From Eledone cirrhosa (taxonomy: Eukaryota), in assembly GCA_964016885.1 (NCBI GenBank), contig OZ024755.1, positions 10,974,001 through 11,038,000 of the forward strand: a stretch of DNA of 64,000 bases, read 5' to 3'. The notes under the pieces were generated by a model. It searched no databases. It was not told where the DNA came from and worked only from the letters and a program-made list of their open reading frames with translations. This document shows, in pieces, positions 26,061-59,945 of the stretch (its first letter is position 1; every line of letters begins with the position of its first letter). Made by a program: the position numbers and the translations under genes.

Positions 26061-27615
26061 GAGTCCTACATGAATTCTACACCTTACAATTTAGAAATAA
26101 AAACAAGAAAGAGACAATGAAAAAAGAAAAAGTGAATGAAAAAAAAGCATGAATTAAAAAAAGCTGAAAAACAAAAACAACTATGAAACAGCTAAAAGTT
26201 TCTGTTGTTGAATCTTTTCGTAGCCTCCATATACTGGAAGATGTTGTTTATGTGTTACAATTTCTAATCTTATTTTCTGGCATCGTACATATATATCTTT
26301 AGACAGCTTGTTTGTCAAAAAATAAAAAAAAATAAAACATCGTCAGGAAATTACTGGTGTGTTTCCTTCATTAGATAATATATATTTTACGTCATCCACC
26401 GCTGTCTTTCTTTCATTAGAAAATGAAAATCTATCTGTTGCTATATCTACTCAAACAGCAAGAGCTGCCTGCCTATAACACATAACACACACACACACAT
26501 ATATATATATATATATATATATATATATATATATATATATATATATATATATATATATATATATATATATATATATATATAGTTAATCAGTGTTAGTTGA
26601 TCTGTCTCTCTTCCTTTTCTTGAATATATATATAGGTACATATATATATGTACCTATATGCAAACTGCATACCCTTGGTTGGACGTTGGCTGCACCCACG
26701 GGCTAGATGGCGAAACATTGCCGCAAAGAGCAGCCAACGATACCTTCTACATTAGCCATTCTACCTGGCAGGGCTCCTTCCCCAGTCGAATAAATTATTG
26801 ATCCAATTTTTCTTCATTGGTTACCAATCAATAGTAACCAGTCAAGCAACAGTGCCTGACCAGAGGTTGGTTTGGGGTGTTAATCATGGCACTCTATGAG
26901 GAGAGGGTTTGGGTTGACTAGCGTTTAGTATTCGATAGCGTTTAGTATTCGATAGGTGTGTGGAATGGAGAAGGTGTGATTAGATTTTGGCAACCATTAA
27001 GTTTAGTGTTTTATAGCATCTGTTTTATTTTTTCGTTATTGGATTATTATTGTTTTATTTTATTTATAATTTATATTTAGAATTTTACAATTTATTTTAT
27101 TTCATTTTTTATTTTTTTATTATTTATTATCTTCTTTTTTATTTTTTTTCTATTTTGTATGCTATAACTGGGTTTGGTATAAATTAGAGAAGTACTTGAC
27201 TTAATAGATAGATCTAGTGTTTGGCGGTGTAGTGTGAGATTGAAATTGTGTTTCTAGGGGATCTTTGCTTTAATGTATTTTGTTGTGGTGTATCAGATGA
27301 CGGATTTGTGTTGAGGGAGGTATTGATGGGTAAAGCCATTACTTTTGTGAGCCTGTATAAATATATATATATATATATATATATATATATATATATATAG
27401 GGGGTAACAAGTTATAGTTATAGGTAATCCAGTTAGAGGTTGTAAGTACTCTGCGTCGCGGATAGTTTTAACGTACGGCTTTGTTTAACTCAACAAGATG
27501 TTTCCATAGTTAGGTAGCGAGTTCGCGGTAATTCCTATGTAGGTTATACTTGGAGTAATAATAGAGAAAGAATGAAGAGTAACATGGTTGGTTGTACAAC
27601 AAGGGGCTTTATTTC

Positions 27616-27730
27616 AGGTATTGACAATTGTTTCATTGATCAGGTGAGTCTAGAGGCCGCTAATCGCTCGAAGTTGCGTCACTCGATCTCCATTACATTA
27701 TTTACCTCTGACCAACTCTTCAGAATACCT
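27616..27730 (-). ncRNA. Type I hammerhead ribozyme (complete, extended helix II)
   Basis: Minus strand: aggtatt-CTGAAGA-gttggtcag[..]ctgatcaat-GAAA-CAATTG-TC-aatacct; 7-bp helix I, palindromic helix III, GUC site. Confidence 0.85.
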
Positions 27731-27735
27731 TAGAA

Positions 27736-27847
27736 TATTCTGAGGAGTTGGTCAGAGGTAAATAATGTAATGGAGATCGAGTGACACAACTTCGAGCGAT
27801 TAGCGGCCTCTAGACTCACCTGATCAATGAAACAATTGTCAATACCT
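27736..27847 (+). ncRNA. Type I hammerhead ribozyme (helix I shortened by the inversion junction)
   Basis: tatt-CTGAGGA(27740-46)-gttggtcag..ctgatcaat-GAAA(27829-32)-CAATTG-TC(27840)-aata. Confidence 0.75.
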
Positions 27848-56979: not shown

Positions 56980-57075
56980 TAAAAAGCTAACCTTGGCAGG
57001 ATTTGAACTCAGAAGGTAAAGAGCCGTAACTATATGCCTCAAAGCATGTTGTTCGATGGTCTGCCGATATGGCCA
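56980..57075 (-). mobile_element. SINE family 1, 5' part
   Basis: aaagctaaccttggcaggatttgaactcagaa..aagcatg. Confidence 0.75.
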
Positions 57076-59668
57076 ATAATAATAATAATAATAATAATAA
57101 TAATAATAATAATAATAACAACGACTACAATAACAACTAACTAAATAAATAAATGAACAAATAAATAATGAAACAAAATGAACCAAAACAAAAACTACAA
57201 ATTGATGGGAGAGAGAGACTAGGGGTTGAATGAAGGCATCTAATTCTTTTCAAAATTCCATACGTGTTTTATTACTATATTTTCGCTATAAATACTTACA
57301 ATGTGTTGATGATAAGAGACGAAACTTATCGATTATATATTGATGAAGTTAGACGAAACCTATCGATCTCGACAATTAAACCAATTTCATCGGAGAATTA
57401 CAACAAAGGTGTAAAGGAGAACTTCTACCGAACTTAATGTGTAAAAGTTTCCCAATTAAATCATTACTGTTGATTTATAAGTAACTTTATTTTATTAATT
57501 CAGAAATAATATGTCTGTCTGGGCAAATACCTATACGGAAATAAGAAGCCCCAGGCAAAACGAATCTGCACTGCAACCCAGTTTTGATTCAAGATAAAAA
57601 GAATTATATATAATATTGATAATATTAATTCCCCCGACTGTTACTACATTTATTGTCTGCGTTTGTAATGCTATCATTTCCAAATTCATATACCTATCTA
57701 TCTATCTATCTATCTCTCTCTCTATCTCTCTCTCACTCTCAAGCTCTCTCTCTCTCTCACTATATATTTTTTTTTTCTGAAATGCTTGTGTAATCTGAAG
57801 CTGATGTCTGTAGATGTCTGAAGCTGATGTCTGTAGTATTGAAAAGTCCAAGTAGCTCCACACCTTACTCTATTACCTGAATGTGTCCCAATCTGTATAA
57901 CTAACCCAGTTATTAAAACAGAATAAATTGTTGATAATGTTATGGAATTCTTTTGCTTCCTATTTTGAGATTTTAATTGTTATTGTGAACAATTTTAATT
58001 GTTCTAACTATGGAGGAAGCCAAATACCATACTATTTTCTTTTCCAGTTAAACTGAATAGTTAGCCATTTACGTTTCTTAGATTCTTCTATCAACAAGTT
58101 CATGAAAAAAAGGTATTTTGGGATTAGATTTTAAACAAGATTTTAAACAACCTAATATATATATATATGTGTGTGTGTGTGTGTGTGTGTGTGTGTGTGT
58201 GTGTGTGTGTGTGTGTGTGTGTGTGTGTGTGTGTGTGTGTGTGTGTGTGTGTGTGTGTGTGTGTGTGTGTGTGTGTGTGTGTGTGTTAAGTGTGGCCACA
58301 ATCTAATGACTATATATGTACATAGAAAGAACCAGAGAGAGAGAGAAACAAGATCGCTTGAATTACAAAGCATTGGGAAATTTGAAATTGGAAAATGCAT
58401 TCGCCACAATGCAGTTTACTATAATAATAGTTGAATAAATCGTGAATTCTACCAAGCACATCTTTAATCTCATGTGGCTTGTCTACATATGTGGGATTAG
58501 AAAAATGATTTTAAATGCGTGTCTAGAAGTATCCGGCGAGTAACAATGTGTCACAGAGTTTCCTGAGAACGATCGGCAACATTAAGACAGCTTCTCCAAG
58601 TTAATTTTACTTTTATACTTTCGCTTTTTTTGTGTGTATGTATTTAAGTATATATTATGTATGTGTGTGTGTGTATGTATGTGTATGTGTGTACATGTGA
58701 TTATGTGTATCTATGTCTGTGTTTTCTTTTATGCCTGTGATTATATCTTAGTTAATAACTTAGCGGTACGATGCAACGAAGTCAATCATATAAGAACCAG
58801 ATTTGGAAAGAACAATAAATAATGGGGTCGATATGATGTACTCAATATATTCAAGGCAGTGTTCCAGCATGGCCGCGATCTAATGACTGAAAAGAGTGAA
58901 AGAGTAAATGAGTGAAAGTGTTTATATTTTCAAGTTTTCTTAACTTGAAGTTTAAAACTTTCATTTCTTTCTTTCTCTCGATACTAAATCGTTTCATCAA
59001 CAATTGATGACTAACTCTGATTACAAGGAAAAGACAATCGATACCAACACATTTCCATGTGATAAATGAGGAAACTCATTGATTGATTAATTGATCTTCG
59101 ATTTTCATATTCCCGGTCAGTTAATAGATATAAATTACATTATAGTGTTAATAAGATTCGTTCAATAAATGTATATACATTCGTACATATGTACACACAC
59201 ATACAATATATATATGTATGTATATATATGTGGGGGGTGTATACTATGTAATGGTATCGATGTATATATATATATATATATAAACGTTTTATTGTAAATC
59301 TTCGTTTTATCCGTTTATTTACATGTGTGTGTAGAAGCGTTTGTGTACAGTCATACATGCCAGCTATATATTCATGGCAGTGCCCATAAGTATAGAGATT
59401 AAGAGAGAAGAATTGGTGAGAAAGTCTGGAAGCAAAGAAACGATCGAACAGATAATTGTATTAGTTTTACCTGAGCGGTCGTTCACCGTATCGCCGTGTT
59501 CTAATACCTGACTATTAATAGCCTCATAATCCAACGCACCTGTCAAGAAATTAGTCTCAGCGTGTTAATTGGAAAATAATTATACAAATGCATATATTCA
59601 AACACACACAGACGTACACAATTCAAATGTATGTATATACACACACACACACACACACACATATATAT

Positions 59669-59945
59669 GCAAAAGTTCTATTTAAAATTGTTGGGATACA
59701 ACAAGTAAATATTTTATAACTGATATAAAGCATTCGACAAGTTTTTGGAGTAGACAGCTTCCAAAAACAGCTTCCAGAAATAATGGTTGCATCTAATAGG
59801 GTACGTCAAAATTATTTATAAAACTGTTTATATATTGTATTTTGTCTGATGAAGGCATACCATATTTTAATTTGGTATCCCTGAAATATATATAATGAAA
59901 TAAATATGGTTTTATAAATATAGTTTTCATTTATTTAATATCGTA
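59669..59945. mobile_element. Family E element, second copy, with hammerhead-like motif on + (59841-59897)
   Basis: CTGATGA-aggcatacca tattttaatt tggtatccct-GAAA-TATA-TA; the left 85 bp is the inverted distal tail seen at 49350-49440. Confidence 0.75.

Follow-up and report, generated by a model that had tools for sequence, protein, structure and literature searches.

This study concerns a 64,000-nt stretch of the Eledone cirrhosa genome (hereafter the window; assembly GCA_964016885.1, genome size 3.0 Gb; contig OZ024755.1, positions 10,974,001-11,038,000), an AT-rich region with many (TA)n tracts in which short fold-back elements and single arms, several of them carrying hammerhead ribozyme motifs, are embedded. 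These short copies are almost certainly the ends (pseudo-long terminal repeats, pseudo-LTRs, or 5' leaders) of Penelope-like elements (PLEs) that encode a reverse transcriptase (RT) and a GIY-YIG nuclease. Fold-backs and family links in the window were found by masked self-BLAST, with microsatellites masked. Copies of five families, A to E, are given below; entries without a strand are unstranded, percentages are identities, and loci elsewhere in the genome, some of them linked to open reading frames (ORFs), carry L numbers.

3554..3657, minus strand: A1, family A (Hydra-like PLE end), tail and mini fold-back without the ribozyme box; 90.7% to ORF-linked L231
19625..19797: A2, family A, left arm tail-less, right arm tailed and without a 23-nt hairpin segment; 5' truncation inside the ribozyme
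27400..27899: family B fold-back, tailed minus arm 27400-27728 and tail-less plus arm to 27899; arms 97-99% identical to each other, 91-95% to ORF-linked L232
27616..27730, minus strand: type I hammerhead of B, with a long helix II region (82 nt), palindromic helix III and GUC site
27736..27844, plus strand: type I hammerhead of the second B arm, a descriptor match
36574..36800 (end approximate), plus strand: C1, family C, single arm with minimal U3-A8 hammerhead at 36614-36650
38435..38612, minus strand: D1, family D, older single arm with U3-A8/GCAA motif at 38547-38583; 78% to L238
38669..38999: C2, family C fold-back (Neptune-like PLE end), minus arm tailed, plus arm tail-less; 95% to the L156 pseudo-LTRs
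38806-38843 (minus) and 38891-38928 (plus): U3-A8 hammerheads of C2, descriptor matches
40820..40965: A3, family A, one tailed and one tail-less arm; 93-98% to L231
49048..49437: E1, family E fold-back (Hydra-like PLE end), tail-less minus arm with hammerhead 49090-49154, tailed plus arm; 99.5% to L152
54118..54545: D2, family D fold-back (Neptune-like PLE end); 97-98% to L238
54279-54315 (minus) and 54388-54424 (plus): U3-A8/GCAA motifs of D2, descriptor matches
59669..59943: E2, family E, older, tail at left and plus arm with hammerhead 59838-59902; 86% to an ORF-linked end

An earlier note on this DNA had described short, TA-embedded families of head-to-head arms with their 3' ends pointing outward, and both the coordinates and the design are present in the sequence. 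The families it listed stand, except that C1 (36574) and D1 (38435) are single arms and not fold-backs. Among its single elements, those at 4990, 40030 and 44402 have relatives of the same tailed design in the fetched loci, whereas 33619 and 41262 carry no motif and have no relatives among the 240 loci compared.

A type I hammerhead descriptor matched the window 8 times with GAAA only and 11 times when GCAA was also allowed, against means of 0.055 and 0.075 (maximum 2) in 200 local dinucleotide shuffles. The 11 complete motifs were spread over families B (two), C (three, with a U3-A8 core), D (three, U3-A8 plus GCAA) and E (two), with one extra at 36184; near-complete hammerheads were also present at 3778, 40085, 54725 and 60017. 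Helix III was palindromic in 9 of the 11 motifs and in none from any of the 200 shuffles, and 7 of the 11 (families B, C and E) had AATAAA no more than ~10 nt from the cleavage site, two traits already noticed earlier. Most motifs fall within the listed elements as claimed, but the family A copies in the window contain no complete motif, and the minus-strand motif at 36184 lies outside the elements. Among the Rfam matches listed (150 of 542), there were microRNA-type matches on simple repeats and one sub-threshold row for a viral untranslated region, and no hammerhead. Position 11.1 was a U at 40085, 60017, 3778, 36184, 27723 and 49146 (U.U, G.U or A-U with 10.1), where a G-C pair is usual.

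The window holds no PLE ORF detectable by tblastn with seven PLE ORF fragments, as the earlier note had also observed. A genome-wide PLE ORF search based on GIY-YIG gave 10,595 candidates, of which 150 were scored. All of A, B, C, D and E could be linked to RT and/or GIY-YIG coding DNA elsewhere in the genome, C and D through the repeats next to the ORFs from this search and A and B by walking upstream, so that the PLE origin, previously proposed on indirect grounds, now has direct support. Because all five families match the ends of ORF-bearing PLEs, we regard the short copies as truncated PLE insertions and not as tandem retrozymes. Eight of ten window copies matched an ORF-linked end at 88-99.5% identity at best; the other two were D1 and E2.

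The clearest parent is L156, in which a 938-aa RT plus GIY-YIG frame lies between two direct family C repeats, each with a hammerhead (RVT_1 E 2e-6, just below the curated cut-off; GIY-YIG above its cut-off). Family D repeats flank similar but broken frames (L238 and L162, with L239 and L166 as further parents), and family E repeats flank RT and nuclease frames (L152, L151). Upstream walking from B reached a nuclease ORF (L232, L192, L185). For family A, RT and nuclease were found at separate loci, with RT frames between two repeats 3.5 kb apart in L231 and the nuclease end in L229. Pseudo-LTRs, direct or inverted, flank the ORF in L156, L231, L238, L232 and L170, and in C, B and D the tail of the upstream repeat was seen to continue into the ORF's start. 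Features of endonuclease-bearing PLEs are thus present: RT with a C-terminal GIY-YIG linked to the repeat, flanking pseudo-LTRs, an optional tail at one end and a pseudo-LTR hammerhead.

By their protein motifs, families C and D appear Neptune-like and A, B and E Hydra-like. The C and D proteins have a CX2-5CxxC linker ahead of the C-terminal GIY-YIG, and the Neptune label is provisional because this linker also occurs in Nematis. The Hydra-type motifs were a CxCX5C linker and CxxC/CxH around conserved E and N (B, E), RWK (B) and DKT (A); the A linker is broken in L231, and not all of the motifs were observed in each family. Two further loci are of note. An open RT plus GIY-YIG frame of 1096 codons at L158:2275-5565 belongs to another Neptune-like family, and near-identical B-linked PLE copies recur every ~9-23 kb at G000:C2:313.35-313.69 Mb (L180, L196-L200), probably as a segmental tandem array.

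Ranked DNA searches favour copies that resemble the query, and the end statistics were therefore redone on unranked pattern matches, taken first in chromosome order, all from the start of the largest contig, with a few segmental duplicates kept. The samples were the first 100 of 8,020 matches for C, 30 of 47,023 for A, 30 arms for B and 5 arms for D. TA adjoined 96/100 C arms, against a background of 6-13%, and 28/30 A, 26/30 B and 5/5 D arms, as well as 57/66 arms of family E, in agreement with the earlier claim of (TA)n flanks. The 3' ends of the C arms fell at the end of the tail in 54 cases, at its start (the short site) in 39 and elsewhere in 7. Inverted partners were present for 23 of the 30 A arms.

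The pairing of these two ends was regular. Across 110 C loci there were 39 unique head-to-head pairs, of which 37 joined a tailed to a short arm and none joined two tailed or two short arms; ranked samples contained three tail-plus-tail pairs among 138. Arms of one insertion also carried the same alleles. At two common sites, C pairs were discordant in 0/34 and 1/37 cases, where about 17-18 were expected, and discordance was 0.05 within versus 0.38 between insertions in B (24 pairs with both ribozyme regions, of 38) and 0.03 versus 0.49 in E (9 pairs of 13). In the parents, TAT follows the short site, and TAT or TTAT follows the tail end where a non-TA flank could be read. Long ORF-bearing copies and solo copies also terminate at the short site, and because the long copies do so, we consider it a start site in its own right.

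At the 5' side, the two arms of the 37 C pairs were within 10 nt of each other in 27, with the short arm longer in 4 and the tailed arm longer in 6. The fold-back centres differ from copy to copy and are often palindromic, with nested mini fold-backs. Relative to the first box, 35/100 C arms began at -46..-32, 12 of them at a single base, while the 14 nt above held 2 ends, and 19/30 A arms began within the 11 nt from +39 to +49. In all, 24/30 unranked A arms begin downstream of the first box. An extra G from a cap, or a splice acceptor, could not be distinguished at these piles from junction palindromes. A second apparent 5' boundary in C, at -489, proved to be an alignment artefact. In family A, a 23-nt deletion between direct repeats around helix III recurs in tailed arms (L031-L060; the query itself carried it), and T runs extend the 5' end of some arms (L380, L381, L384), possibly through slippage or untemplated addition at the junction.

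We favour, with a probability of roughly 0.75, the reading that these are 5'-truncated insertions of PLE ends, each fold-back likely produced by double priming on one RNA at nicked (TA)n. As suggested by this anatomy and by in vitro work on the Anolis PLE Poseidon (Frangieh 2024, PMC11167929; published work is cited throughout from main texts, with partial coverage), the GIY-YIG domain would nick both strands of (TA)n, and each nick would prime cDNA at one of two start sites in the 5' leader, immediately ahead of the ORF. The two cDNAs would then run to the 5' end of the same RNA, be it a start site or a broken end, and join head to head via short palindromes or microhomology, leaving copies that would mostly be dead by-products. 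In the Poseidon system, the PLE protein is a predicted dimer; it cuts an AT-rich target, with extension of both strands, and uses uncleaved RNA, so that ribozyme cleavage is dispensable, and RT starts at two internal sites that set the tail. Poseidon belongs to a different clade and its start sites lie inside the ORF, whereas here they lie just before it; in the parts of that paper covered, we found no analysis of head-to-head products. The components of this reading differ in strength. That both arms derive from one template is probable, twin priming is preferred to snap-back synthesis with some confidence, and that the 5' pile marks the 5' end of the RNA is rated a little better than even.

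The part played by the ribozyme was assessed from its conservation and from the copy ends. Helix covariation, one of several checks named in the earlier note, was seen in family E, where 11-20 of 63 arms have compensatory helix II changes. The core was better kept than the rest of the arm in E (P 0.006) and C (P 0.008) and not significantly so in B (P 0.70) or D (P 0.27), values that are optimistic because the arms are related. A subfamily of B carries A9U (27/87 arms). In long A copies the type I fold is complete, its box being U3-A8 or C3.A8 and its helix III long; the short A copies must therefore be cut inside the ribozyme. Most A copies lack the first (catalytic) box, yet A is the commonest family, which fits the in vitro result that insertion needs no cleavage (PMC11167929). 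In C, where the cleavage site is at +30, 5/100 arms start at +30..+32. The 56 nt upstream hold 4 ends and the 47 nt that begin at +30 hold 25; the excess at +30..+32 over the downstream rate is weak (P 0.02). We predict that the hammerhead is cargo of the pseudo-LTR, working as a dimer if at all, and unneeded for insertion. A bolder and tentative proposal, to which we give less than even odds, is that the Penelope reaction has left a fossil record in this genome, in the form of strong-stop-like, twin-primed run-off products that number tens of thousands and of which a minority start at the hammerhead cut. If true, those C copies would count as genomic evidence for in vivo cleavage by a minimal PLE ribozyme.

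Several observations weigh against these readings. An adjacent inverted partner was found for just 15/30 unranked B arms and for 0/5 D arms. Shared alleles in the two arms would also follow from subfamily activity in different periods or from later homogenisation of the arms, and unequal arms could reflect later loss of the palindrome centre. The 5' ends of B are more spread (14/30 in -14..-3, 10/30 beyond -500), and those of E are scattered. At a C site near the centre (-27), T occurred in 13/37 tailed arms versus 1/23 short arms, in a sample whose query itself began with that T; in the unranked sample this site occurred too rarely to be scored, and the two-template reading it had suggested is unsupported there. 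The frames of the A, B, D and E parents examined are broken. For the ribozyme, monomer folds were no more stable than shuffles (z +1.3 to -2.1), cofolding gave the full double hammerhead for C only, with D forming a part of it and B, E and 36184 folding differently, and the C excess at +30..+32 could also come from AT-rich microhomology or from stalling at helix I.

Among the rival accounts, one that is doubtful as a whole but a live alternative for the 5' piles holds that cDNA synthesis started in the downstream repeat of a long transcript and that the copies are ordinary 5'-truncated products of it, with the piles as RT stall or microhomology hot spots. Such an origin would suit the 30/100 C arms and 10/30 B arms that reach far upstream with scattered ends, and also the position of the A pile inside ribozyme loop II and of the B pile at the foot of helix I. 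It fits poorly with the concentration of 35/100 C ends within 15 nt and of 19/30 A ends within 11 nt, and strong structure at the C pile did not turn up, although no dedicated search was made for it. Moreover, in B, C and E the ribozyme is followed by AATAAA before either start site is reached, and because of this order the downstream repeat may be cut off before the start sites.

Snap-back synthesis, which we consider unlikely, shares the PLE origin and differs in the second arm, made by self-priming when one cDNA folds at a short palindrome and is copied as DNA. Junction palindromes can be read as signs of self-priming, close to the model for rotifer Penelope elements (PMC3846280), and the nested mini fold-backs at the centres and the near-equal 5' ends of 27/37 C pairs agree with this; alleles common to both arms are explained equally well. 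Yet the tail-less arm reaches further 5' than its presumed tailed template in 4/37 pairs, unless centres were later deleted, and the short end is fixed although the C body contains a better TA stretch, at which 1/25 arms ends. Solo and long copies that terminate at the short site likewise speak against snap-back.

The earlier note had instead proposed a guild of ORF-less, retrozyme-like PLE derivatives mobilised in trans, which on this reading would be independent and transcribed in their own right. We now think this improbable, even though most copies are short, as in the A arms that begin past the first box, PLE end sequences are able to support integration in trans (PMC3846280) and a short tail motif is common to the Hydra-like families. 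All five families and the B A9U subfamily have ORF links, no head-to-tail ribozyme arrays occurred in the window or samples, and most A copies are unable to form a ribozyme. The variable centres add to this, since they imply that no fixed fold-back master is being copied. The A9U subfamily had been considered as a parentless family and was rejected as such: 9/30 copies have at least 700 nt of upstream sequence in common, and 3 extend as far as the nuclease ORF. Short copies could nonetheless have been re-copied in trans. Assembly artefacts, which the earlier note had named as a threat, or DNA transposons of the miniature inverted-repeat transposable element (MITE) type are hardly credible, for although long palindromes and TA tracts are difficult to assemble, the arms differ by ~1-10% and obey a strict tail-plus-short rule, the ends are retroelement ends and not terminal inverted repeats with a transposase link, and short-read contigs (possibly from the assembly's own sample, silent on transcript starts or expression, and with depths that do not equal copy numbers) show both TA junctions and opposite-strand fold-back joints.

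Exact pattern counts across the genome, for which all reversed-pattern controls gave 0, returned 23,231 matches to the C/D hammerhead, 47,023 to the A helix III segment, 8,020 to the C body, 392 to the B first box and 162 to its A9U variant. Matches to the C/D motif are about 10-fold over-represented in the window (5 versus 0.5 expected), and the density of one motif per ~6 kb that the earlier note had extended to the genome is for this reason unfit for extrapolation. In 164 kb of sequence flanking 90 other insertions there were 12 motifs, or 1 per 14 kb, a density that is biased upwards. From the exact counts and this flank density, the genome total is at least 23,000 and probably below ~200,000. 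By comparison, ~2,000-9,000 minimal motifs per genome have been described (Cervera and de la Pena 2014, PMC4209133), against at least 23,231 here for two families, and hammerhead counts are given as ~5,000 for mussel and as many as 120,000 for axolotl (PMC7229834). A total of at least 23,000, possibly ~100,000, in 3 Gb would place E. cirrhosa among the most hammerhead-dense animal genomes in the literature compared, as far as those main texts go, with Hydra-like and Neptune-like PLEs as a very large source of hammerhead motifs and palindromes.

The class of element is already known, namely PLE ends with minimal hammerheads in TA repeats; what is new is the scale and the regularity. Taken together, PMC8557442, PMC3846280, PMC11167929, PMC4209133 and PMC7229834 describe, in the parts covered, inverted truncated copies, the tail, TA bias, solo pseudo-LTRs, junction palindromes, minimal and U3-A8 hammerheads and opposite-strand ribozyme pairs. 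Families C and D resemble Neptune clade PLEs (PMC8557442) in their RT followed by a C-terminal GIY-YIG, CX2-5CxxC linker, minimal-hammerhead pseudo-LTRs, truncated inverted copy, one-end tail and microsatellite bias. They depart from the described Neptune elements in tail length (66 nt in C and 39 nt in D versus 30-40 bp), in a long region upstream of the RT frame and in their tens of thousands of ORF-less copies. Families A, B and E share linker and nuclease motifs, (TA)n insertion and hammerheads with the Hydra clade (PMC8557442), which is described there as few families, whereas here one family alone gave 47,023 pattern matches; their tails of 79-163 nt, and the A ribozyme with its long helix III and U3-A8 or C3.A8 box, are also unlike the described Hydra elements.

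The motifs themselves resemble the minimal type I hammerheads of PMC4209133, with a short or palindromic helix III and the U3-A8 variant, mostly single motifs from truncated PLEs, and dual motifs 100-700 bp apart on opposite strands. GCAA for GAAA (D), A9U (B subfamily) and U at 11.1 are absent from the main text of that paper, as far as covered. Non-LTR retrozymes (PMC7229834; bioRxiv 10.64898/2026.07.22.740005) are likewise non-coding, PLE-related and equipped with type I hammerheads, but are 150-450 bp tandem repeats with canonical ribozymes and circular RNAs, whereas the copies here have minimal motifs and represent ends of coding elements, either solo or arranged head to head; neither head-to-tail ribozyme units nor a parentless (non-autonomous) family, by which such retrozymes are recognised, was found here. 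In octopus, recently active Penelope-like families have been reported, and the part of that paper covered (PMC13282606) contained no ribozyme analysis that we could find. Within the same partial coverage of main texts, nothing was found on cephalopod PLE hammerheads, on counts of tail-plus-short pairs or on 5'-end piles; these families or variants may already be listed in the supplements of PMC8557442 or PMC4209133, or in the octopus repeat library to which PMC13282606 refers.

How inverted, tailed PLE insertions form is an open question in the field (PMC8557442, in the text covered). Thousands of regular short products, together with the open RT plus nuclease frame of L156, make twin priming versus self-priming directly testable, and the copy 5' ends record in the genome where transcripts start and possibly where the ribozyme cleaves. 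Repeat pipelines could misfile such copies as short interspersed nuclear elements (SINEs) or MITEs.

Beyond families A to E, the window contained the following related features.

3740..3945 (bounds approximate), plus strand: further family, older copy with a tail; its near-complete hammerhead runs from 3778
4990..5145: further family, tailed fold-back, this copy without hammerhead; 6 matches in the fetched loci
36143..36191, minus strand: complete type I hammerhead outside the listed elements, helix I of 7 bp, palindromic helix III, beside a long interspersed nuclear element (LINE) remnant
40031..40150: further PLE-type end family, tail and arm, near-complete hammerhead 40081-40118 (U.U at 10.1/11.1); 11 matches in the fetched loci
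40175..40366: further tailed fold-back family, ribozyme lost here; 11 matches, with a complete motif in relatives, read by eye
44403..44639: another family, head-to-head arms with (TA)28 at the centre, truncated short of the hammerhead present in relatives
60006..60317, plus strand: further family, one arm with TA at the 3' end; the hammerhead from 60017 is near-complete, with a broken helix I

No relatives of 36143..36191 carrying the motif were present among the fetched loci. In the family at 60017 (also L125, L011 and L187), helix II is long, and the helix III palindrome varies yet stays palindromic (CGATCG, CGGCCG, CAATTG). The copy at 54725 (plus strand), deleted after the second box, represents an abundant hammerhead family with 25 matches in the fetched loci (L070, L136, L221). 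The word GAGTRCT is common to the tails of several Hydra-like families (3607, 5043, 19745, 40076, 40875, 49366; one of seven matches lies outside the elements) and is a possible, putative protein-binding signal held in common.

A KCNQ-type potassium channel exon lies at ~45954-46079 on the plus strand (best E 1e-14 to KCNQ4/5 chains); given this exon, the window elements probably lie inside introns of a KCNQ-type channel gene, and much of the window is perhaps intron. LINE 3' remnants, 82% alike and with a weak zf-RVT match, occupy 13673-14198 and 35551-36078 (minus strand). A dispersed repeat of ~150-200 nt, SINE-like by size, occurs in many copies on both strands (6139-6269, 9270-9712, 29271-29451, 32198-32407, 42576-42756, 48185-48246, 56983-57069 and 62590-62783).

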